Assembly: GCA_903893805.1 (NCBI GenBank)
Contig: CAITNM010000026.1
Location: 133,664-197,663 of the forward strand
Origin: an uncultured Alphaproteobacteria bacterium
GTDB lineage: Bacteria; Pseudomonadota; Alphaproteobacteria; Paracaedibacterales; CAITNM01
Length of the DNA: 64,000 bases
Reading direction: 5' to 3'
The notes below the pieces were generated by a model that was given only the letters and a program-made list of their open reading frames with translations, did no database searches and was not told the origin of the DNA. Below are positions 23,709-55,358 of the stretch, in pieces. Made by a program: the position numbers and the translations under genes. Every line of letters starts with the position of its first letter. The stretch's first letter is position 1.

Positions 23709-25061
23709 GTGCGTAATTCAGTTGCAGATCAGGTTGATGAGCTTCTTGGGCAAATTCAAAACATTGAAGATTTTGAGTTGCATGGGTTTGTTGAGCGTTT
23801 AGAAGGGTTAAGCGCAGTTGTGCGTGTGAATTCACAAAAGATTCATATTGGAATCCGCTGTTGGTTGCATCCACAAAATCATCCGCCCGTACTCGGAGAA
23901 GTCATTGGCTTTAATCAAGATCTTGCCCAAGTGATGACCTTTCAACATCTAAAAGGTCTGCATCCAAAATGCAAAGTAACGTTTCTAGAGCATGGAACTA
24001 CTATTTATCCAAGTTTGAATTGGCAAGGCAGAGTTATTAATGGATTGGCTGAGTCAATTGACGGGAAAGGCGTGTTGCCTCATGGTGCTCATGCGTATAA
24101 CCTTCATGGATCTCCCATACCAGCCCATAATCGTGCAAAGGTAAAAGACCCAATTGAACTTGGGGTTCGTGTACTTGATACATTTTTAACGTGTTGTAAG
24201 GGGCAGCGATTAGGCATTTTTGCAGGGTCAGGCGTTGGCAAATCAGTTTTGTTATCAATGCTTGTGAAATTTTCTAATTGCGATATTTGTGTGGTGGGAT
24301 TAATTGGTGAGCGAGGTCGAGAAGTTCGCGAATTTATTGAAGACACCTTAGGTGAAGAAGGGCTTAAGCGCACTATTTTAGTTGTCGCTACATCTGATGA
24401 AACAGCCCTAATGCGCAGAGAAGCTGCTCATTTAACCCTACGTCTTGCTGAATATTATCGTGACTTAGGTCTTAGTGTTGTGTGTGTGATCGATAGTGTA
24501 ACCAGGTTTGCTATGTCTCAGCGTGAAATTGGATTAGCTGCTCATGAACCGCCTACAACAAAAGGTTATACCCCAAGTGTTTTTGCAGAATTGCCAAAGT
24601 TGCTTGAACGAGCAGGCCCAGGTATTGAAAATAACGAAGGAAAAACAGGATATATCACAGGATTTTTTACGGTGCTGGTCGATGGTGATGACCATAATGA
24701 GCCTATATCAGATGCGGTAAGAGGTATTTTAGATGGTCATATTGTGCTTGATAGAAATTTAGCAATTCGTGGTCATTATCCGGCAGTCAGCGTTTTGAAG
24801 AGTATTTCACGTACAGTGCCTATGTGTCACAGCGAATCTGAACAACAGGCCGTTATAGAGGCTCGAAAAAATTTAAGCATGTATAATGACATGGTTGATC
24901 TTATTCGTTTAGGTGCTTATCGTATCGGCACAGATTCTGCAGTTGATAAGGCAATCCACTTGAATGAAAAATTAGAGCCCTTCTTGCAGCAAAGGCCCAC
25001 GGAATTTGCAAATCAGGCAGAATCATTTGAAGAATTAAAAAATATTATGGGGCTTAATTAA
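23709..25061 (+). CDS. fliI: FliI/YscN-family type III secretion (flagellar) ATPase
   Basis: Walker A GSGVGKSVLLSM, GERGREVREF, and an F1-ATPase-like core. GTG start. Confidence 0.85.
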   Translation: MRNSVADQVDELLGQIQNIEDFELHGFVERLEGLSAVVRVNSQKIHIGIRCWLHPQNHPPVLGEVIGFNQDLAQVMTFQHLKGLHPKCKVTFLEHGTTIYPSLNWQGRVINGLAESIDGKGVLPHGAHAYNLHGSPIPAHNRAKVKDPIELGVRVLDTFLTCCKGQRLGIFAGSGVGKSVLLSMLVKFSNCDICVVGLIGERGREVREFIEDTLGEEGLKRTILVVATSDETALMRREAAHLTLRLAEYYRDLGLSVVCVIDSVTRFAMSQREIGLAAHEPPTTKGYTPSVFAELPKLLERAGPGIENNEGKTGYITGFFTVLVDGDDHNEPISDAVRGILDGHIVLDRNLAIRGHYPAVSVLKSISRTVPMCHSESEQQAVIEARKNLSMYNDMVDLIRLGAYRIGTDSAVDKAIHLNEKLEPFLQQRPTEFANQAESFEELKNIMGLN

Positions 25062-42603: not shown

Positions 42604-42987
42604 ATGAAAAAGGCTAAATTAGTAACAATAGCTATGCTACTCACATGTGTTAAAGGGTATGGTTTATCTAGTGAAGATCAATACCAGGCATTAAAAAGAG
42701 GCGCTTATCAGGTAATTGAAAATCACAAAAATGAAATCCTTGACTGTGATCAATCCAAGCGGTTTACCATAACACCTCTTAAGAGTAATTGTGAAGATTC
42801 AGAGAAAGGATTTGTTGGAATTTTGAGCGTTGATCTTATTAAATGTAACGAGGAAAACATCTTCAAGATGGTTGTTAAATTGAAAAATCTAGAAATATAT
42901 TCGGCTACTATCGATAGTGACATCTTAAAAAATTTAAAAAATTATGAGTCAATAAAATTTCAATCTTTAATACAAAATAATAAATAG
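42604..42987 (+). CDS. Small hypothetical secreted/lipoprotein-like protein
   Basis: 127 aa, signal peptide MKKAKLVTIAMLLTC, several Cys residues, AAGGA RBS. No family recognised. Confidence 0.5.
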   Translation: MKKAKLVTIAMLLTCVKGYGLSSEDQYQALKRGAYQVIENHKNEILDCDQSKRFTITPLKSNCEDSEKGFVGILSVDLIKCNEENIFKMVVKLKNLEIYSATIDSDILKNLKNYESIKFQSLIQNNK

Positions 42988-43062
42988 ATCCCAAAAATAA
43001 AAACTAATAAAAAAATCAGATTGCTTAATTATCTTCTTTAGGTGTGTGGGACAGTTTGGTTA

Positions 43063-43138
43063 GGTATTAGTTTTTATTTTAGGCCTGACACTTTAATTGT
43101 GAAGGTTGGGTGTCAGACCTAAAATAAAAACCAATACC
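43063..43138. repeat. Imperfect inverted repeat (29-nt arms, 18-nt loop)
   Basis: ggtattagtttttattttaggcctgacac and gtgtcagacctaaaataaaaaccaatacc are complementary at 27 of 29 positions. Confidence 0.85.
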
Positions 43139-43146
43139 TTGAGACT

Positions 43147-46038
43147 ATGGGGTGTTCATCTTCTCTTGCTACGAATGGCTTAATTGTGCTTCTATGTGGG
43201 GCGCATTTTGTAAGAAATCTACATCCTAAAAGTAAATTGGTAGTTATGTCTTTAAGTTTGTTAACTGCACGAGAACTAGATGTTGTTTCCTGTCTTTTAA
43301 ATGGGCGTGGTGTAAAAAAAACAGCATCTTTATTAAAGATTTCCCCTAAAACTGTGGAAACGCATATTAGAAATCTTATGCTTAAGACGAACTGTACTTC
43401 ACGAGAGCATTTAATAGACAAAATTATTGAAGCTGATATGTTGCAATCAGTGCAGCAACATTATTCAAAAATTCTTGGAAAAGATTTTCTCCCGAGCGTT
43501 CAGCCCAATGAATTAATACATCAAAATTTTTCAAAAAAACCTTTTATGAATTTTTTATGGCTTGCTGCTTTTATTAGTATTTTAGTCTGCGTCTTCTCAA
43601 TAAAATTTTTCTTTTTTCATGAAAAACCAACCATTAAAGATGATCTGCTTTTACCTAATAAACTGGTTTTCTTAGAACGTCAAAATTTGCTGAAAGAAAT
43701 TAAATATCAGTTTTCAAAAAGTCATGATGATATTAAAATAGTTGCGCTAAAAGGTGTCGCAGGTGCCGGAAAAACGATTATAGCTCGTAGTTATGCAAAG
43801 CAATATCACGAAGGATTAATTTGGGAAATTTGCGCAAGTAGCAAAGAAAGTATTCTTATTTCTTTTGAAAAGCTTCTGATTGCTATACTTCACCAAGAAA
43901 AGGATGAGTCAGGTCATTAAATCCTGCAAAAAGTTCGTAACACTCCACAATATGAATCAACCTTATTATTGATGCTTAGAGAGAAATTATCACGTAATCC
44001 TGATTGGCTTTTAATATTTGATAACGTTACTGACTTTAAAAATATTCAAGATTATTTACCTCATGATTCAGGTATTTGGGGAAGAGGTGAAATTATTTTA
44101 ACAACTTGTGATTCGGCGATTAATATGGCTGGAGCTGTGATAGAAGTTTCTGAGCTTAATCATAAAGAAAAAATACAGTTGTTTAGCAAAATCCTATCTC
44201 TTCAAGAAAATGTGTCAAAAGAAGAGCAGCATTTTCTAGATAGTTTGCCGCCATATCCCTTAGACATTTCCACAGCTGCGCATTACTTAAAAACAGTTTC
44301 AATTTCTTACCAAGAATACTTAAGCAGGATGAAGGAAAATAGTCAGCAATTTAGCGAGGCTCAAACTGATATTTTAAAAGACGTTGGGAATTATACGAAG
44401 ACTCGTTTCAATATTATTGGTTTGTCCATAAAAAACTTGCTAACAGAACACCAAGATTTTTCTGATTTATTGCTTCTGCTCAGTGTGGTTGATGCAAAAA
44501 ATATTCCACGAGAAATTCTAGATTTTTATAAAAATCCTGTCACAGTTGATAAATTTTTGCATGCTTTACAAAAGCATTCTTTGCTCAGCTGTTGTGGAAA
44601 AATTATTAGTTTGCACAGCGCTACGCAAACAGTTGTACGTTCTTATCTGTCGCAAATGTTAGGAATCAACAAGCAACAAAATAAAATAGAAAACATAACC
44701 GAAGTCTTGGAAAAATATGCTGACAAGCATCTTGTCGAACAAGATTTGCAGTCGTTGCAACAGTTGTTGCCGCATCTTTTGGCTTTAGTGAAGCACGATA
44801 ATATTTTAAGCAAGATTGCCCTTGCAAACCTCAATGTAAAAATTGCAAATATTGATATCATCAAGCAAGTAAATCAGAGCCAATCAAAAACTTTATTAGA
44901 AAATAGTTTGGTTGTTTACAAAGAGTATTATTCCAAGGCTCACCCAAAAGTAGCTTGGGTTCTAGGGCAGCTAGGTGTATTAAGTAAGTCTGATGTTGAA
45001 AAGCAACGTAAGTTTTTTGAAGAAAGCTTAGATAAGTATCAAAAATACTACCACAAAGAAAATCCTATACAGTGTGCCTGGATTTTAGTGCATTTAGGAA
45101 ATTTTTATAGACGATTAGGTGATTATCATAAAGCTGAACATTATTTGCAAAAAAGCTTAGAAATTTATCAAGAACACTATGGTTCAGAGCATCCCAAAAC
45201 TGCTTGGGTTTTTGCGAATATGGGACGTTTTTACCGGCGCATTGGTGATTACAAGAAAGCAAAAATTTTGCTTGAGAAAAGTTTGGATATCCATAGTAAA
45301 TACCCTGGGAAAAATGAAATTGAAGTAGCTTGGGTTAATTTGAACCTTGGTATTTTGTATTATTACTTATGGGACTTAAATCAATCAAAACAGTTAATTG
45401 ACAAAGGGGTCGAAGTTTACAAAAAGTACTACACACCTCAGAATCGTGAAATGGGATGGGCGTTGATATACAAAGCTTTAACAAGTGCCAGTATCACAGG
45501 TGATTGGCTTACTGCTGAAGCTGTCGTTAAAGAGTACGCAGATATTTTTATTGAAAATGGTGAAAAAGATCATATATCTGTATCGTGGGCATTAGAAAGA
45601 TTAGTGCGAGTTTATATAAATTTGCACGAATATTCGAAAGCGCTCAGCATTTTAGATAAGATGCTAGAATCTTACACAAAATTAGCTGGTGAAAATTCTG
45701 TACAAGTGGGGTTTTGCAAAAACTATATAGGGCGAATCAACTCACTAATGGGTAATTACAAAATCGCTGAATATTTCCTAAAAGATGCTTTTGCAATTTT
45801 GAATAAGAATCGGCATCCAAGAAATTATATCGTTATTAAAAGTCTTATAAACAACTATAAGTATCAAGGGAATTTCAACTCTTTTATTTTGAAAAGCTAT
45901 GAATCAATGTTTGAAAAGACGGTTCGTCAATATTTTCCTAGAGATTCTGGAATGATGACAATACTTAACCTATTTGATGTAAAGTGCATCACCAATAGGG
46001 CTTCCATTTTCCCTTCCTTTAACTTTTTTGATGCTTAG
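43147..46038 (+). pseudogene. LuxR-HTH / hydrophobic segment / NB-ARC / TPR STAND-type protein, interrupted by one in-frame TAA (43918-43920)
   Basis: ORFs 43147-43920 and 43969-46038 are in the same frame. Motifs: GerE-type HTH LTARELDVVSCLL...ISPKTVETHIRNLMLK, hydrophobic FMNFLWLAAFISILVCVFSIKFFFF, Walker A GVAGAGKT (43753-43776), Walker B WLLIFDNV, GEIILTTCD, PPYPLDIS, then KLC-like TPRs. The likely true start is ATG 43246. Confidence 0.75.
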
Positions 46039-46145: not shown

Positions 46146-46442
46146 ATGAGAGAAACAGAATTTCTTGTCAAAAATCTAGAAAGAAATATTTCTCTAGAAA
46201 GAAATGCAATTTCAGAGTTTCTTAAAGTAAATATATATGCTTCAAAATTTCCTGCTTCAATTGAGATTGAAGTGTCTGATTGTGATTTAAAAAGAATTGG
46301 TAAATCCGTCAAAAAATCTCTCAACTATTTTGATGAAACCTTTTCAGAAAAAGAGACTGAAATCATAGGTTATTACAAAGCTCCTGCTTCTCAATGCTTT
46401 TTGAAAAATAAGTATTGTCAGAAAAGGGTTACAATATGCTGA
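46146..46442 (+). CDS. Hypothetical protein (98 aa)
   Basis: Strong GGAGG RBS 5 nt before the ATG, which favours this strand over the antisense ORF 46019-46324. No family recognised. Confidence 0.45.
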   Translation: MRETEFLVKNLERNISLERNAISEFLKVNIYASKFPASIEIEVSDCDLKRIGKSVKKSLNYFDETFSEKETEIIGYYKAPASQCFLKNKYCQKRVTIC

Positions 46443-46666: not shown

Positions 46667-46806
46667 GGTCCAGGAAACATATTTGAAAAAAGTGCGTATC
46701 GTTGCTAGCTATATTTAGCTGTCAGACTTTTCTTTAACTGTAATGGTTAATGGAGTATACATTGCATATTGTGCAGGATTTACCATATTTTCCACATAAA
46801 GACCAG
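46667..46806 (+). repeat. Right copy of ~140-bp direct repeat (intact A2M 3' end + decayed trmD 5' fragment)
   Basis: Aligns with 42311-42453. The trmD relic reads ATA TAG CTA GCA ACG ATA..., against ATG TGG CAA GCA ACG ATT in the live gene. Confidence 0.85.
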
Positions 46807-49800
46807 GCTGCTGGAATTTTCCAGTGTGAGTAGCAATAACTTCATAAGCCATTTTAAACGCACCTGCATTAGTAGGCTGACGCCATGAAGCAACGTATCG
46901 ATCATGGCGTTTTTGCACTGTGGAACCATCTTTGACATCTTTCAGCCATTCATAATTTGATATAGTATTTGAATGAGTAAATCCAGCTGGAAGCCAGTCT
47001 GAAATTAGCCAGTATCCTTCAACAGCGACATTCTCAACTGTACCTTCAAGCACTACAATTACTCGTTCACCAAGGATAATATTTTCGTTGTTTATTTTTG
47101 TGCCATCAGGCTTGTAAAAAGTACGAATTATCTTTATACCGTTTTCTTTTTTATCACCGGGCTCTGATGGAATACCATATGCATTTACGAATAGCCAAAC
47201 TGAATCATCACCAATGTTTTCAATTGTAACATCTTGCAAAGGATTCAGAGTGTGCGAGACGAAATTTTTTTCATTGTATGATTTTTGATTAATTTTGACT
47301 TTTATATTTTTTGTTGTAGTAAGGGCGCTATCAACATTTGCTTTTAAAAGCATTGCTAAAGTTTGGGTGTTGAGACGAGTAATATCTTGGTCTATTCCTT
47401 TGTTCAGCACTTCTTCAAGAGTTTCAACCAGTTGATTGATCGTTTTAATAGTTCTAAATGATGACAAATGAGAAGCAATTGCGGCCGCTTCATCAAGAGA
47501 AATACCTTTTTCAATTATAGTTTGTAACTGCTGAATACCTTTTTGAACGCGAGTTAAATCTTGAATGCTGGCAACTGTTGCTATAAACATGCTCTTTGCA
47601 ATTGCTGTTTCGCACTTATCAAAATATTCGTCAAAGCAATACCTAATTGTGGCGGTGTCTATTTCTTGTGATATGGCGCATAGCTTTACAAGCCAAGCAA
47701 TATTGTCGGCTTTCTCTCTGCCTTGTTTGATTTTCCAGTCGATAGAATTTATTTGTCGTTTTGCAAAATCTAGTGCGTTTTTAACTATTGCTTTTGGAAC
47801 AGTTAAACTAGTATTTTGAGCATACGTAAGCATTTCTAGTGCGTAAGCCGTGATGTTGAAATCATCATTATCTCGTATCCAAAAGCCCCAACCACCAGTT
47901 GAATTTTGTCGTTCATTTAGTGTTTCTATAGCCTCATAGCAAATGCGCATGTATTCAATGTTGTCTGGGTTTGATGTTTCATCTTTACTTTGTTTCAGTC
48001 CAAATATTGCAGCAAAACCCTTACTGATAGTTTGTTGAGTGCAACCAAAAGGATAATTCAATAGCCATCTTTTGATTTTTCCAACATTCCAAGGGCCTTG
48101 ATTTGTGAGAAATAAATCAGCTTGTGTCTGGAGAATGTGTAACCCTTTGAATTCAAGTTTGCACTCAGCTATTTCTTTTGATTTTATTTCTTGTTTTTGG
48201 CTTACTAAAATAGGCTGGTAAGCTGAACGAACTTCTATAGAAGTTGAATTTTGGTAGCTTATGCCTTCACCCTTTACTTCGACTTGAATAACACCTTCAC
48301 CAATTTGTTTTGCTTGAGCTGAAATAGACAAACGTTTTTGTTCTTTGGGTGCCAGTGTAATCGTTTGTTTTTTTGAAGTTGGTTCAAATGCTTTTTCCAA
48401 GCTGATATTAATTTGGCATTCGATAGAGTGGTCAGTTGTATTTTCTAAACGAATATTTAAATCATTTTCGTCATCCACGGTTAGAAACGAAGGAAGATTT
48501 GGATCAACAATTAAATCATCTTTTACGACAACTTTTCCACTTTGGCTTCCCATTTTTTCATTTGTTATAGCAACTGCGTATACCCGAAGTTTTCCGAAAA
48601 ATACTGGGATGTCCATAGAAATTTCGGCTTTTCCATTAGCATCAAGATGCACATCACCGTCAAAAAAGCTTAGAACTTTGTCATTTACTTTTGGCACAAA
48701 TGCCCCGCGACGAAGCATTATTCCATCTCCACCAGAGCGCATGTCCATGACATCAGCATCTACAGGATCAATGATATATCCATAGACATCGTGCATTTCA
48801 AGACCGAGTTGACGCTGGCCGAAGAAATGTTCTATTGGGTCTGGAGTTTTAAAATTAGTGAGTCCCATTACTCCTTCGTCTACAATAGCTATCATCAATC
48901 GTGCATCATGATTGCTTATATTTTCAATATGCACAGGAACCTTTAATTGAGTTTGTGGCTTTATTTTTTCTGGCAAATCAATTTTAATTTTTAGAGTATG
49001 GTCACCGGAATCAATTTGAATCCATTGTATGCCTACTGCACGTTTTGCTTGAATACCAGCAGTCTTTTTATCTAGCGCTCGCACAAGTGATACCATCACA
49101 TAAGCGCCACTTCCCCAACTTTCGTGGGTTGGCACTTTCAAAATATTCATGCCTTTTTTTAGATGAGCAGTATCTTTTAGTTGTATTGAATTTAGCCCGG
49201 CAATAATAATGGCTTCCCCATCAAAAGGAGCAAAAACTTTTAAAATTGCAGGCTCCCCAAGCTTGGTAACTTTTGTTTCTGGGGTGATATTTAATGTATC
49301 AGGTCTATCTTTTTGACAGCTGTATTGCTGACCGATTCTATACTTTGCAAGTTTTCTCCCATCTTTGTGTTTTATTTCAATTGCATAATTGGTAGCAAGT
49401 TTACCTTTGAAATTCAGAGAGGTTGGTTTATTAGCTTTTGCTGTAATGCTACCTTTTTTAAGAGGTTTGTCTTGATAGATGCGTTGGTAACTCCAAGAAC
49501 TTCCACGATCCTTATACCACTGATAGTGTGCTTCACTTTTAAAAAGTGTGTATTCAAGGTCTTCTACTGCGACCAAGCTACCATTGTTATCAACAGCAAT
49601 TATTTCTAGTTCAATATTTTTACTAGGATGATCTGCTTTTTCACGTATTCCAACAATGTATGGATGGGTTAGTAAGGTGGTCGATGTATTTGCTTGTTGA
49701 GATGATGTGGTATCAACTAACCTTGCGGTTAAATCAACACTCAAAGCTTTTGAGCAACTCAGATCACTTGGTATTTCAATTTTTAGTTCAGATTTCCCCG

Positions 49801-51301
49801 TTTGAATTGGTGCTGTTGCACTAGTTATAACACGGCTAACAAATCGTTCGTCATCAAGTCCAAAATGAAAATCTTTCCATTGTTCAAAGGGTGTATCTGT
49901 AGGGCTAATTTTTGCTTCTAATATAGCCTGCCTGTCATTAACTGCAGCTCCATAAAGGTAATGAGCATTTAAGGTGCACACTTGTTCAGAGCCCAGTTTT
50001 GAAACTTTTTCAAGTGTAGCTAAGGTCATTTCCATTTTGTTAGGGCTAAAATCATCAACCCTGAAATTAGTGGTGCCTACAGAACTTTGAGTTGGATCAA
50101 CATAAACCTCTACAGACCACATACCAATTGGGCAATCAGTCGGTAACATGTGCTCTGTATTGTAGGTCCCAAGTGAGTTCCCTTTCACGGTTTCCCGCTT
50201 AATTTCAATTCCTTTAGGTGACTTAATAATAAATGTAAGCGGCATAACTGGGACTTGCTTTCCATGTCCGTTACGTAATATAGAGACGATGTTGACTTTT
50301 TCATCAGGACGATAAATTCCTCGCTCACAAAAAACCATTGCATCGTAATCATTTTGTATTACGCGTCCTTTTACACCGCGATCGCTAAAATCAAAACTTG
50401 CTGCTTTTAATGATATAAAACTGAATCCTAGCTCCTCATTTTTAGCAAAGATAGCTACGGGTTTTTTCCCTGCTTTGCCGTTTAGCAGTTCTTTTGAAAA
50501 CTCAGCAAATCCATTTTCATCAGTTACTGCCGTTGCTATCACGTCATTATCTGCGCTAATTAATTCAAGCTGAATATTTTTCAATGATTTTGCATTTGAA
50601 AATGCGCGCGCATGAATCAGTAGTGTTTGATCGCTCTGAAAAGTTGTAAGGCCTATATCAGTGACGATGAACCATTGATCAGATACCTCTGCATTATAGT
50701 ATTGAAGAACGCCTTTTTGTCTTACTTCTAGTACATAAACACCTGGTTTTAATTCTGGAACAAGGGTTGTTGCTTCAAGATTTTTTGTAATAGTTTGATT
50801 CGGTTTTGCTTTCCCATCAAAATCAATAGTTGTTGAAACTATTTTTTCAGCGCTTCCAAGTTCGTAGGAACGAGTCATTAAACTGTTCATATGACCAATA
50901 ATTCCACGGTCTGGTATGCGATATAAGGTTGCTTGTGCTGTATCTATATTAATGGTTCTCACCGGGAGGCAAATTTTTTCTTGTTTTGGGTAAATATAGG
51001 TATTGTTCGGGAAATTAATTCTTGGTTTTAGGTCTTTTACAAAAAATCCTATTTCTGAAGCAGTATCAGTTTTTTCATCTAAAATACCGGTTATACCTGC
51101 TCTTGTTTTAACGCTATATTCTATGCCAGCTTGAAACCCTGAAATAGATATTTTGGAACCCTCAGCATGGACAAAACCGTCAACCTTAGGAGAAATTTCT
51201 ATGTAATTTTCTGGTTGTTCTAAATTCAAGGGTTGCGAAAAATTAAGGCGTAAAATTGCACCTTCTGGAGTTTCTTCAACTTCATGATTTATGTATTCAA
51301 A
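46715..51301 (-). CDS. Alpha-2-macroglobulin family protein (body; frame open upstream to an in-frame TAA)
   Basis: Size and collinearity with bacterial A2M/YfhM. It has an MG1-like start EGAILRLNFSQPL, the thioester-region motif YPFGCTQQT (48032-48046) and a C-terminal receptor-like domain. There is no ATG; the track start is TTG 51229, and the frame stays open to 51301. Confidence 0.85.
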   Translation of the reverse strand, partial: FEYINHEVEETPEGAILRLNFSQPLNLEQPENYIEISPKVDGFVHAEGSKISISGFQAGIEYSVKTRAGITGILDEKTDTASEIGFFVKDLKPRINFPNNTYIYPKQEKICLPVRTINIDTAQATLYRIPDRGIIGHMNSLMTRSYELGSAEKIVSTTIDFDGKAKPNQTITKNLEATTLVPELKPGVYVLEVRQKGVLQYYNAEVSDQWFIVTDIGLTTFQSDQTLLIHARAFSNAKSLKNIQLELISADNDVIATAVTDENGFAEFSKELLNGKAGKKPVAIFAKNEELGFSFISLKAASFDFSDRGVKGRVIQNDYDAMVFCERGIYRPDEKVNIVSILRNGHGKQVPVMPLTFIIKSPKGIEIKRETVKGNSLGTYNTEHMLPTDCPIGMWSVEVYVDPTQSSVGTTNFRVDDFSPNKMEMTLATLEKVSKLGSEQVCTLNAHYLYGAAVNDRQAILEAKISPTDTPFEQWKDFHFGLDDERFVSRVITSATAPIQTGKSELKIEIPSDLSCSKALSVDLTARLVDTTSSQQANTSTTLLTHPYIVGIREKADHPSKNIELEIIAVDNNGSLVAVEDLEYTLFKSEAHYQWYKDRGSSWSYQRIYQDKPLKKGSITAKANKPTSLNFKGKLATNYAIEIKHKDGRKLAKYRIGQQYSCQKDRPDTLNITPETKVTKLGEPAILKVFAPFDGEAIIIAGLNSIQLKDTAHLKKGMNILKVPTHESWGSGAYVMVSLVRALDKKTAGIQAKRAVGIQWIQIDSGDHTLKIKIDLPEKIKPQTQLKVPVHIENISNHDARLMIAIVDEGVMGLTNFKTPDPIEHFFGQRQLGLEMHDVYGYIIDPVDADVMDMRSGGDGIMLRRGAFVPKVNDKVLSFFDGDVHLDANGKAEISMDIPVFFGKLRVYAVAITNEKMGSQSGKVVVKDDLIVDPNLPSFLTVDDENDLNIRLENTTDHSIECQINISLEKAFEPTSKKQTITLAPKEQKRLSISAQAKQIGEGVIQVEVKGEGISYQNSTSIEVRSAYQPILVSQKQEIKSKEIAECKLEFKGLHILQTQADLFLTNQGPWNVGKIKRWLLNYPFGCTQQTISKGFAAIFGLKQSKDETSNPDNIEYMRICYEAIETLNERQNSTGGWGFWIRDNDDFNITAYALEMLTYAQNTSLTVPKAIVKNALDFAKRQINSIDWKIKQGREKADNIAWLVKLCAISQEIDTATIRYCFDEYFDKCETAIAKSMFIATVASIQDLTRVQKGIQQLQTIIEKGISLDEAAAIASHLSSFRTIKTINQLVETLEEVLNKGIDQDITRLNTQTLAMLLKANVDSALTTTKNIKVKINQKSYNEKNFVSHTLNPLQDVTIENIGDDSVWLFVNAYGIPSEPGDKKENGIKIIRTFYKPDGTKINNENIILGERVIVVLEGTVENVAVEGYWLISDWLPAGFTHSNTISNYEWLKDVKDGSTVQKRHDRYVASWRQPTNAGAFKMAYEVIATHTGKFQQPGLYVENMVNPAQYAMYTPLTITVKEKSDS

Positions 51302-51808
51302 TTATAAAATGTCTTTGAATCTTGAGTCTTCAGTTCTTAATTTTTCAATTGGGTAAAGTTTTTTTATTTCTTCTAAGCTGCACCATGAATTTTGTGTAAA
51401 ATACAGCAACAAAGCCTGTAATTTTTGAATATTTGAAATACTGTGCGTATATGCTAAATAGGCTGCATATTCGCAGAGCTGACTGTATTCATAATTTCTT
51501 TTTTTAATATTTTTTGCGCCATGATAAGCAAAAAGTGCTACATCAATTAAAGTTGCTGCGTCTTTGTGTGCAGAGGTTAAAATGACTTTTGACTTTTCTA
51601 AGCCTTTTACCCATTGTTTTTCTTTAAAAATTTCTTCTAATTCTTTTTTTGCTTTTTTGTATTCGTTTTTATCAGCAGGGGGGAATTCTTCAGAGATTTC
51701 ATCGATAAAATTTTTGACATTCTTTACGGCATGCTCGGGGAAATGAAATTCAGCTGCTAGTGGAAGGAAACAACACAATACAGTAAGTGCAAGGATACGA
51801 AAAAACAT
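51302..51808 (-). CDS. Signal-peptide-bearing helical protein, in frame with and probably the N-terminus of the A2M gene
   Basis: MFFRILALTVLCCFLPLAAEF signal. Its TAA (51302-51304) is in the same frame as the A2M body, with no gap. Confidence 0.6.
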   Translation of the reverse strand: MFFRILALTVLCCFLPLAAEFHFPEHAVKNVKNFIDEISEEFPPADKNEYKKAKKELEEIFKEKQWVKGLEKSKVILTSAHKDAATLIDVALFAYHGAKNIKKRNYEYSQLCEYAAYLAYTHSISNIQKLQALLLYFTQNSWCSLEEIKKLYPIEKLRTEDSRFKDIL

Positions 51809-53190: not shown

Positions 53191-55358
53191 TCACAGCGTA
53201 TCAGAAACAATATTTTTTATAAAGTTACCAAATATTGGAAGTGCTACAGTGGCGCCTCCCTTGCCATCTCCAAGATTTTTTGGTTTTAAAAATCCAACAA
53301 ATACTCCAATTACAAGAGGATTGTCATCTTGATAAATTGTTTCTGGAATACTAACGCTACCTATAAACCAAGCGTCGTGGTTACTATTTGTTGTGCCGGT
53401 TTTTCCACGAATTTTAACACCATGTGCACGTTCAAGCGGTAAAAGAGATTTTCCTGTTCCATGCGTAATGACAGCTCGTAGCATTTCAAGAAGTCCAAAG
53501 ATAGCTGAAGCTGAAGCAAGCCGTTGATAGCTGGTCATAGTAGTTACAGGAACAACCATCAGAGCATGTTGCTTTTCCAAACAACAAGAGGCCACATTTT
53601 TATTATAAGTGAAATTTTTCTCTGAGCGAAGGCATTGTAAAATTTTGGTTTTAAGTGGTGGCCACCATTAAAAATCATTGCATAGGCACTTGTAAGTTTT
53701 AGCAGTGTTGTTTCTTTTGAGCCCAATATTATAGACGGATGTTTTGATACGTTACTATAAATTTCAAATAATTCAGCTATATCTTGAATGTGTTCAAGTC
53801 CTGTGTCCAATCCAAGCTGTATAGAAGACAAGTTATGAGAATAGGCCAAGCTGTTTTTTACAGTTACAAAACCGTGTGTTTTTTTGTCGATATTTTTTGG
53901 TTTGTAAATCTCTCTTCCGTTATTAAGCAGCATAGTGATAGGTTCATCGTTGATAATGTTATTGGGATTAATGCCGTGTTCTAATGCTGCTAAATATACA
54001 AAAGGTTTAAAGCTAGAGCCTGGTTGTCGTGTTGCTTGTATTGCACAGTTAAAAGGATTCGTGATGTGGCTCCAACCACCAACTAGAGCCAGAACTTGTC
54101 CAGTTCGTGCTTCCATTACAACAATTGCTCCATTTACTTCAGGAATCTGCCGTATGTGCGCTTTCTCATTTTTAACTTCAACTAATATCACATCACCTTT
54201 AATCAAGGGTGTTTCAAAAGCCCATCCAGTAGCATCTAAAGGTAATGTTTGTTTATTTTGTAGTTGTATAAATGGTTTTTCATTTTTAAAATCCACAATA
54301 GATTTTTGATAGTTTTCAGGGCAGTCGGAAACTAATATTTTATTTAAATCATCAATAGAATATTTATCTCCTAAGTTAGCAATAGGTTTATAAAAATTTT
54401 TTTGCGTTAAATCGTATTTTAACAAACCGTCTCTTAGTGCTTTTTGAGCAGCTTGTTGAAACCGTATATCCATACAACTAAAAATTTCTAACCCTGAGGT
54501 TATGTTAAGTTGAGGCATTTCCTTAGCAAGAGCTTCCCGCAAAGAGGTTGTGTAATATCCATAGTTTATGGGGCTGTTTTCTTCGTGGTGAAATTCAACT
54601 GGTTGCTTAGCTGCTGATAGGGCTTCTTCAGTGGAAATATAGCCCTGTTCTGAAAGTGCTTGAATGATAGCGTCGCGTCTAGTTTTAAGTTTTTGTGCAT
54701 TTTTGGATAATTGTGCCGGGGCTTTCGGTAATGCAGCAAGCAAAGATGCTTCGCTAATTGTAAGTTCTTCTACACTTTTTTTAAAATAGTTTAAGGAAGC
54801 TGCCTGCAGACCATAAGCTCCATTTCCTAAATAAATTTGATTTAAATAAAGTTCTAAAATTCGATCTTTGCTGAGCTGACGTTCTATTGAAAGGGTAGCA
54901 AAAGCTTCTCGAAACTTTCGTAAAAAACTCTTTTCATTACCTACTAAAAAGTTCTTAGTTACTTGTTGCGTAATTGTGGAGGCACCTACCAGATTTTGCT
55001 GAGATTTTTTATGTATAAGATTTTGAAAAAGTGCGCGTAAGATGCGCAGAGGATCAATTCCTGGATGGTAATAAAAGTTCTTATCTTCAGCCACTAAAAA
55101 TGCAGCAATTACTTTTTCCGGAATATTTTCAATTTTCAAATTCAGTCGGTGAACAGGCGCAAACTCATGAAAAAGACAAAAATGTCGATCATAAACTCTC
55201 GTAAGTTCTGGGGCTTGGTAGTCATTTAAAAAATCAGAATTAGGTAGCCCAGGTTTTAAGTGCCAGTAAATATATCCGATTGTTCCTGTTACGATTACTC
55301 CCGTTAGAATTAAGCATATTCCCAGTTTTAAAAAAATTCTTGCAAATGCATTGTACAT
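53191..55358 (-). pseudogene. Class A penicillin-binding protein (PBP1A-like), frameshifted
   Basis: The 599-aa ORF has GT51 motifs (AEDKNFYYHPGID, GASTITQQ, RKFREA) and SSFK. The 134-aa ORF carries KTGTT. Both frames are open over 53559-53674, so one indel there splits the gene. Confidence 0.8.

Follow-up and report, generated by a model that had tools for sequence, protein, structure and literature searches.

A family of putative STAND transcription regulators with an unexpected predicted membrane topology in protist endosymbionts, and its recently interrupted member in an alphaproteobacterial contig

The DNA analysed here is a stretch of 64,000 nucleotides from contig CAITNM010000026.1 of an uncultured alphaproteobacterium (the window; all coordinates refer to it, and features lie on the forward strand unless stated otherwise). 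At 43246-46038 it contains a gene of 930 codons, one of which is a nonsense codon, whose product combines a LuxR-type helix-turn-helix (HTH) domain, a predicted single transmembrane (TM) helix, an NB-ARC ATPase module, and a tetratricopeptide repeat (TPR) array. Judged from its sequences, the family to which this gene belongs consists of transcription regulators of the STAND type, for which an unexpected topology is predicted. The reading that we prefer, although we hold it tentatively and with slightly less than even confidence, is that the gene is a recently pseudogenised signalling gene of a large endosymbiont family, whose proteins would be bitopic like ToxR, with the HTH in the cytoplasm and the NB-ARC-TPR part in the periplasm. 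Sensors of the STAND/NLR type are generally considered to act strictly inside cells, and the periplasm of bacteria is considered to be free of ATP. Here, the sequence statistics of a family of several hundred proteins put an ATP switch outside the inner membrane. If this placement were true, no STAND NTPase outside the cytoplasm would have preceded those of the family, which would also constitute a new class among the transmembrane one-component systems.

Domain architecture and predicted topology

The open reading frames (ORFs) at 43147-43920 and 43969-46038 share a single frame and the TAA at 43918-43920 is their only interruption, as the initial annotation of this stretch had described. Of its product estimate of about 930-960 residues the lower value stands, because reading through from the ATG at 43246 (MSLSLLTAREL...), which matches the start of all homologues, gives 930 residues. 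The start at 43147 does not stand. In the upstream alignment with the two closest genomes, this ATG turns out to be the product of a 10-bp deletion (ATTATATCGC) peculiar to the leader of the window genome. Two loci are used for comparison throughout, L079 on a contig from run SRR24390589, and L002 from a metagenome-assembled genome (MAG) named Candidatus Finniella inopinata. The intact protein of L079, P0001, has 96% amino-acid identity to the window protein, and another homologue, P0002, has 87%.

Pfam was run on the read-through product from M43246 with the stop replaced by X, and GerE, NB-ARC, and TPR_12 were all found above their cut-offs. The GerE/LuxR-type HTH at 43258-43419 (residues 5-58) reaches 49.4 bits (cut-off 23.5) and also matches the C-terminal domains of NarP, MalT, and FixJ in NCBIfam; the HTH of a member of the longer form described below superposes on GerE, DegU, and VraR at 0.6-1.1 Å. 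The NB-ARC module, comprising the nucleotide-binding domain (NBD), a helical domain, and a winged helix according to Pfam and Foldseek, extends over 43684-44655. Its Pfam match (residues 147-325, 32.5 bits, cut-off 23.5) runs across the stop, which lies between Walker A (GVAGAGKT, 43753-43776) and Walker B (WLLIFDNV, 44005-44028). The TPR array at 44881-45984 (residues ~546-913) resembles that of kinesin light chain (KLC), with four TPR_12 stretches (141 bits, cut-off 30.1) and a TPR_10 match of 92 bits, and is presumed to be the ligand sensor.

All motifs quoted in the initial annotation were found in the sequence. G170, G173, K176, P338-L339-D340, and H457 are invariant in 41 homologues, and D259 and N260 are nearly so. 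The segment PPYPLDIS had been compared to GxPLA; the GxP-type motif is PPYPLD, with P335 and the invariant P338-L339-D340. The MHD-type histidine is that of SLH457, and in the AlphaFold2 (AF2) model it opens the helix following the β-hairpin 448-455. The likeness of GEIILTTCD to hhhTTR holds only in part. The motif is present, but the sensor-I arginine (hhhToR) is a cysteine; TTCD is found both in the window protein and in the two orthologues closest to it. Because 131 of 170 family members have the arginine, its loss is lineage-specific and is no argument against membership of the family in the NB-ARC clade. The 'DN' of Walker B was considered as a family-specific mark of lost hydrolysis and rejected, because the cytoplasmic outgroup has DN too.

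A sequence search against the PDB returned only TPR proteins, with KLC1/2 and consensus TPR chains as the best matches, and a fold search was therefore needed for the relationship of the nucleotide-binding oligomerisation domain (NOD). The AF2 model of the intact orthologue P0001 has a mean pLDDT of 86.5. Residues 8-78 form an HTH domain of four to five helices and residues 103-123 a lone helix, with a disordered linker (80-102, pLDDT ~31-33) between the two. The lone helix is followed by an α/β NTPase, helical and winged-helix domains, and TPR helices up to residue 913. This is a STAND fold. Foldseek matched it to the STAND-TPR protein 6mfv (E 5e-13), Apaf-1, CED-4, the ZAR1 and NRC resistosomes, and Avs3, with E values from 5e-13 to 2e-8 for 6mfv, Apaf-1, and CED-4. 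The family is thus a bona fide member of the NB-ARC clade of STAND proteins, and the four domain calls made from the letters alone were all right according to Pfam, AF2, and Foldseek.

The lone helix corresponds to the single hydrophobic segment at 43543-43617 (residues 100-124, FMNFLWLAAFISILVCVFSIKFFFF), found by Kyte-Doolittle hydropathy and in the AF2 model; the best 19-residue Kyte-Doolittle window of the orthologue has a value of 2.54. Across the family, segments were counted at Kyte-Doolittle values of at least 1.6 in two sets, 78 genomic copies and 142 independent representatives. One TM-class segment is present in 76 of the genomic copies and 135 of the representatives, and a second hydrophobic segment occurs in only two of the 78 copies. 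The segment comprises 19-24 residues with a mean value of ~2.25 and ends 43-70 residues (genomic copies) or 45-68 residues (representatives) before Walker A. Its position is fixed while its sequence is unconserved (14% pairwise identity). In the genomic set, the 15 residues on its N-terminal side contain on average 4.1 K/R and 0.9 D/E, those on its C-terminal side 2.3 K/R and 2.1 D/E. The net charge of the N-flank minus that of the C-flank is positive in 70 of 78 copies (p=4e-13) and in 120 of 135 representatives (p=6e-20). The NB-ARC-TPR relatives without GerE domain (P0043-P0052) do not have a TM-class segment; HTH and TM helix therefore go together. A profile search with the HTH and the TIR-like module of the longer forms for other C-terminal fusions gave only five matches (word-indexed search).

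By these features, the segment is inferred to be a single-pass type-II signal anchor with the N-terminus inside. The positive-inside rule would therefore leave the HTH in the cytoplasm and place the NB-ARC-TPR part in the periplasm. A folded basic N-terminal domain of 100-330 residues is also not known to be exportable as an N-tail.

It could also be that the family consists of the same regulators but that the segment does no more than anchor them in a peripheral, monotopic, or re-entrant manner. The HTH, NB-ARC, and TPR parts would then all be in the cytoplasm, where there is ATP, and the protein would be a STAND activator like AfsR and GutR that is recruited to the membrane. The dependence of STAND switches on ATP or ADP, the conserved motifs of the nucleotide site, the cytoplasmic TIR-NB-ARC-TPR proteins as the closest relatives, and the fact that a periplasmic NOD has never been shown experimentally would all suit such an arrangement. 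However, a helical hairpin is excluded because the segment has only 19-24 residues, and an amphipathic in-plane helix is excluded by an Eisenberg mean hydrophobicity <H> of 0.81, a hydrophobic moment muH of 0.11, and a central proline in only 3% of the segments. In addition, the fixed position of an otherwise unconserved sequence and the strong positive-inside asymmetry are hard to reconcile with an anchor of this kind, which we therefore regard as unlikely. The initial annotation had preferred exactly this anchor, against which speak the uniform hydrophobicity, the length, the low moment, the rare proline, and the charge asymmetry in more than 200 homologues. It had also called it implausible that HTH and ATPase reside on opposite sides of the membrane, but this is what the sequence statistics predict, and it becomes plausible in bacteria that inhabit the host cytoplasm and import host ATP across their periplasm.

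An endosymbiont family and its possible mechanism

GerE, NB-ARC, and TPR domains occur together in about 41 clusters according to a word-indexed search. When GTDB was scanned with a profile, with each species represented by one genome, at least 261 relatives were confirmed. An exhaustive phmmer search, in which residues 1-480 were compared to 1.84 billion representatives, resulted in at least 878 clusters (50% identity) at E<=1e-30, of which the 150th best still had an E value of 5e-84. The named hosts with known biology are all Holosporales endosymbionts of protists, namely Ca. Finniella, Ca. Paracaedibacter symbiosus, Ca. Odyssella thessalonicensis, and Ca. Caedibacter/Paracaedimonas acanthamoebae, whose family member is plasmid-borne. 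The remaining hosts are MAGs, mostly labelled Alphaproteobacteria, Holosporales, Paracaedibacteraceae, or Rickettsiaceae. Paralogues are numerous, with at least 11 loci in the MAG MKUL01, and it is common for two or three copies to be arranged in tandem. Of the 97 ORFs detected, about 82 are full-length and intact, and most copies encode 900-1250 residues.

The window protein is a minority short form. About 90% of the members are long forms of 1050-1250 residues, in which the short linker that joins the HTH to the hydrophobic helix is replaced by a domain, making them longer by ~170 residues at this place. These residues are modelled as a flavodoxin-like α/β domain (pLDDT 78; for example, residues 115-275 of P0013) with weak Foldseek matches to the TIR domains of Brucella BtpA and SPARTA (E ~0.01). 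Pfam TIR_2 is matched with 19.4 bits (cut-off 28) in two of 16 members, and no Glu is invariant in the domain. From the model, the domain may be called TIR-like, but this is not proven.

The mean pairwise identity is highest in the HTH (52%), followed by the NBD (43%) and the TPRs (29%), and lowest in the hydrophobic segment at the value given above. The recognition helix of the HTH is nearly constant across the family. The initial annotation had not assigned the domain order to any described family, and our full-text literature search agrees with it in that no description of a LuxR-HTH/TM/NB-ARC/TPR architecture in endosymbionts was found. A comparative-genomics paper on amoeba symbionts does not mention TPR, LuxR, or NB-ARC (PMC5751055). 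The member on the Caedibacter plasmid is labelled 'hypothetical protein' in its GenBank record, and JGI uses generic labels ('TPR repeat protein / CsgD family regulator'). The best explanation is that the family is large, uncharacterised, and restricted to protist endosymbionts (Holosporales/Paracaedibacteraceae and similar).

The proposed mechanism starts from the predicted topology. The HTH would stay in the cytoplasm and the NB-ARC-TPR part would be exported to the periplasm, as in one-component regulators of the ToxR/CadC type. By analogy with MalT, GutR, and AfsR, binding of a ligand to the TPR array would release autoinhibition, upon which the NB-ARC module would exchange ADP for ATP and oligomerise on the periplasmic side of the inner membrane. 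Oligomerisation would take place close to the membrane because the NB-ARC module begins only ~10-20 residues past the TM helix. The bundled TM helices would finally unite the cytoplasmic HTHs on a palindromic operator. The numerous paralogues with their diverged TPRs and near-identical recognition helices would then form a repertoire of sensors with one transcriptional output. Many sensors acting on one DNA target are suggested because the HTH is the most conserved part and its recognition helix is near-constant.

The ATP for the switch would have to be derived from the host. Finniella and its relatives live directly in the host cytoplasm (PMC11909080) and Holosporales possess ATP/ADP translocases (PMC5751055), which is also said in PMC6447387 citing Wang and Wu 2014. 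Because the bacteria live in the host cytoplasm and import ATP through these translocases, host ATP must cross the periplasm, and the objection that the periplasm is free of ATP is thereby weakened. That the named hosts are restricted to ATP-importing cytoplasmic bacteria is in line with this idea without being proof of it. Among the ten large window ORFs scanned, which are housekeeping genes, there is no ATP/ADP translocase gene. In its complete form, the proposal is that an NLR-type switch was moved to the periplasm, where it would be loaded with host ATP and probe the host molecules entering through the porins, so that an outward-facing sensing array would report onto one operator. We consider this possible, but more doubtful than not.

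A candidate for such a LuxR-type operator, based on sequence, is the 12-bp palindrome ATCTACGTAGAT. It precedes the HTH motif by 160-220 nt in some of the long-form genes from several genomes and is ~100-fold enriched there. With up to two mismatches, it is present at L019, L024, L034, L037, L040, L041, L054, L070, and L072. TACGTAGAT sites occur 19 times in 1.06 Mb of loci, 14 of them within 26 kb of upstream DNA.

Comparison of the neighbourhoods at 78 loci revealed MobA/MobL relaxase, integrase, IS110 transposase, and a heterogeneous Sel1-repeat group as recurrent neighbours; a recurrent small-peptide partner did not turn up among them. This mobile surrounding bears on another function that might be ascribed to the family, an NLR-like role in conflict with or defence against mobile elements or rival symbionts. 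Recognition by the TPRs would lead to oligomerisation of the NB-ARC modules and then to membrane damage or NAD+ depletion, with the TM helix and/or the TIR-like domain as effector and the HTH being merely autoregulatory. The large repertoires of paralogues, their diverged TPRs and tandem arrays, the relaxase, integrase, and transposase neighbours, and the plasmid-borne member are all consistent with this, as are the TIR-like domain of the long forms, the descent from TIR-NB-ARC-TPR proteins, and the fold resembling Avs3 and the resistosomes. However, a PADLOC scan matched only a generic TPR model, and the TIR-like domain is below threshold, has no invariant Glu, and is missing from the short forms. 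The most conserved module is the HTH, always accompanied by the TM helix, and not a toxic effector. In addition, the topology problem would persist. A defence function is thus quite unlikely, and the Avs-type logic that the initial annotation had seen in the domain order is not supported by the PADLOC result and the conservation of the HTH.

It is even harder to imagine that the proteins are secreted effectors, which would insert into host membranes with eukaryote-like NB-ARC and KLC-type TPR domains. The hosts are intracellular symbionts, which are known for eukaryote-like repeat proteins, and the TPRs are closest to those of kinesin light chain. However, the most conserved domain is a bacterial GerE HTH. 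Moreover, very hydrophobic TM helices are captured by the signal recognition particle and the inner membrane, and a helix with a Kyte-Doolittle mean of 2.25 would not escape this fate. We regard this explanation as very improbable.

Several points weigh against a periplasmic switch in an endosymbiont-restricted family. To our knowledge, no extracytoplasmic P-loop STAND NTPase has been shown experimentally. Placing the NOD outside requires a change of compartment in evolution because the nearest relatives are cytoplasmic TIR-NB-ARC-TPR proteins. The C-terminal part is poor in cysteine (0.6% compared to a background of 1.0%), but even and odd cysteine counts (42/36) do not show a parity bias. 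In the neighbourhoods of the 78 loci, neither a conserved operon partner nor target genes were found, and ATCTACGTAGAT was not found upstream of the window gene. Finally, some of the MAG matches are on short contigs labelled as taxa that are not endosymbionts, which may be due to misbinning or may be a break in the host restriction.

Nevertheless, the preferred reading raises the question whether energy-parasitic endosymbionts use ATP-dependent signalling in the periplasm, and by what means the Holosporales, which are poorly understood, perceive the protists they inhabit. Even with a cytoplasmic NOD, the family would be a large group of unannotated regulators taking a sizeable share of small endosymbiont genomes.

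The nonsense codon, the leader, and the locus

The TAA at 43918-43920 is codon 225 of the gene and differs by a single C>T change from the CAA (Gln) found in L079 and L002. The orthologues in two related Candidatus Finniella-like genomes are intact at the equivalent locus, so that homologues with the same domain order and without the stop do exist. The window coding sequence is 96.9% identical to that of L079 over 2793 nt and does not contain any indel. Between these two sequences dN/dS is 0.20 for the whole coding sequence and 0.14 downstream of the TAA. Because of the value of 0.20, purifying selection must have acted during nearly all of the divergence, and the nonsense change is therefore either very recent or an error. 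The window copy is accordingly best described as recently inactivated, if the stop is not a sequencing error, and at most a stub of 224 residues with HTH, TM helix, and P-loop would be made. The intact orthologues with their CAA agree with the suggestion in the initial annotation that the gene is dying.

The TAA might instead be a sequencing, consensus, or strain-level artefact, in which case the window gene would be intact and functional and only the pseudogene part of our reading would fall. This would explain why the substitution stands alone without a frameshift and why dN/dS downstream of it is like that of a gene under selection. However, there are further lesions within 13 kb compared to L079, the closest genome, namely another in-frame TAA, a 1-nt deletion, and the 10-bp deletion in the leader. 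Because of these, real local decay is more likely than an artefact, to which we assign a small share of the probability. The other TAA, at 51302-51304, interrupts an alpha-2-macroglobulin (A2M) gene (46715-51808, reverse strand), where L079 has AAA (Lys). The 1-nt deletion, near 53605, is in a class-A penicillin-binding protein (PBP) gene (transglycosylase/transpeptidase; 53191-55358, reverse strand). In total, three of the nine genes in this local 13-kb stretch are broken. Recoding of TAA as Gln was also considered and rejected, because the second in-frame TAA, that of the A2M gene, stands for Lys.

The A2M gene encodes 1697 residues in L079 and is absent from the L002 locus. The class-A PBP is a single ORF of 722 residues in both L002 and L079, while the window copy is split into ORFs of 134 and 599 residues. 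For the window alone, the meaning of the nonsense codon is modest, as it adds another recently broken gene to a region of local decay.

The gene is preceded by a conserved 5' leader/promoter region (42988-43245), in which the window-specific deletion is located just after 43148. Between L079 and L002, the leader is 95.8% identical, compared to 90.7% for the coding sequence, 74.5% for the upstream ORF of 127 residues, and 76.7% for the downstream spacer. An imperfect inverted repeat of 30 bp (arms 43062-43091 and 43110-43139, 93% complementary, 18-nt spacer) has arms that are unique within the window. A sigma-70-like site is present at 43097-43125; such sites are not enriched over shuffled sequences. 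The leader RNA folds with -65.2 kcal/mol (z = -4.8 compared to shuffles). A terminator-like hairpin with a U-run is located at 43185-43205, ~40 nt before the start codon. Scans of the leader with Rfam and for tRNAs gave no family at threshold and just spurious matches to miRNA hairpins far below. The leader may act as an operator or attenuator, or it may give rise to a small RNA, and the inverted repeat may be a candidate operator or an RNA hairpin.

The initial annotation had placed the gene in an inserted island, but a recent insertion is not supported. The G+C content of the gene is 33% (window ~39%), but the locus is syntenic in three Finniella-like genomes, and the window, L079, and L002 share rplS, trmD, and an ORF of 127-129 residues as upstream neighbours. 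Small ORFs flank the gene at 42604-42987 and 46146-46442, and their positions are kept in L079 (127 and 98 residues). Neither of the two matches a Pfam family. The upstream one has a signal-peptide-like N-terminus and diverges fast (see the L079-L002 value above). Further away, in the 14-30 kb region, a FliI/type III secretion system (T3SS)-type ATPase gene at 23709-25061 suggests that flagellar or T3SS-related genes have been retained in the endosymbiont of the window.

At other loci, family members are often adjoined by large Sel1-repeat proteins (L032 11456-17293, with similar ORFs in 12 loci). The L032 example, of 1945 residues, has a weak NB-ARC match below the cut-off (19.4 bits), a DUF7779 match, and a kinase-like motif HGDxHxxN in its N-terminal region. 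With the Sel1-repeat proteins, these endosymbionts may possess another STAND-like family that has expanded.

Comparison with known systems

AfsR and other large SARPs as well as GutR of B. subtilis have the same order of DNA-binding domain, NB-ARC, and TPR as the family. In AfsR and GutR, ATP binding de-represses the DNA-binding effector, and in these two as well as in MalT inducer and ATP together set it free (PMC10936776). However, AfsR and the SARPs have an OmpR-type winged HTH and a BTAD domain instead of GerE/LuxR. The window protein does not match Trans_reg_C or BTAD, and the NCBIfam AfsR model is matched with only 26 bits (cut-off 1430), in the TPRs alone. AfsR and GutR are also soluble, whereas the family has a TM helix between HTH and NOD, and they differ from it in that the family is found in protist endosymbionts with many paralogues per genome.

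MalT and the other LAL regulators, and the mycobacterial cyclase-ATPase-TPR-LuxR proteins, likewise combine a STAND NTPase, a repeat sensor, and a LuxR HTH and oligomerise with inducer and ATP. In MalT/LAL, however, the HTH is C-terminal, while the HTH of the family is N-terminal (residues 5-58) and its NOD is of the NB-ARC type. MalT also has no membrane segment. Pfam TPR_MalT is matched with 40.3 bits (cut-off 45), and the NCBIfam MalT model only in the HTH (31.5 bits, cut-off 537).

The closest relatives of the NB-ARC-TPR part are TIR-NB-ARC-TPR proteins, including the TPR proteins of the FxSxx-COOH system (NF040586), whose model is matched with 140.6 bits (cut-off 300). The outgroup of such proteins (P0043-P0050) shares the 'LLIFDN' Walker B with the family, and the long forms keep the TIR-like domain N-terminal to the NOD. 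Unlike the family, the outgroup has neither a GerE HTH nor a TM helix. Avs and bNACHT proteins have a toxic effector at the N-terminus where the window protein has an HTH, and no defence model beyond the generic TPR one was matched in PADLOC. On the basis of these sequence comparisons, the family is outside LAL/MalT, SARP/AfsR, and the known defence families, and below the cut-off of the FxSxx system.

The only precedent for a predicted periplasmic STAND NTPase that we found in the literature is a NACHT protein of Thiohalocapsa PB-PSB1, a target of a diversity-generating retroelement, whose location was predicted from topology alone (PMC10907252). It is a single protein from a free-living host with a NACHT domain, a C-type-lectin sensor, and no HTH, in contrast to the hundreds of NB-ARC proteins described here. 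ToxR, CadC, and TcpP begin with a DNA-binding domain in the cytoplasm, cross the membrane with a single TM helix, and have their sensor at the C-terminus on the other side, and the family is predicted to be built likewise. In both, sensor-driven oligomerisation of a membrane-tethered DNA-binding domain is presumed. The differences are that ToxR, CadC, and TcpP have an OmpR-type winged helix and small, nucleotide-independent periplasmic domains, while the family has a GerE domain and would export an ATP switch with TPRs of ~800 residues. By analogy, the family is thus most like AfsR and GutR in its domain logic and most like ToxR and CadC in its predicted membrane topology.

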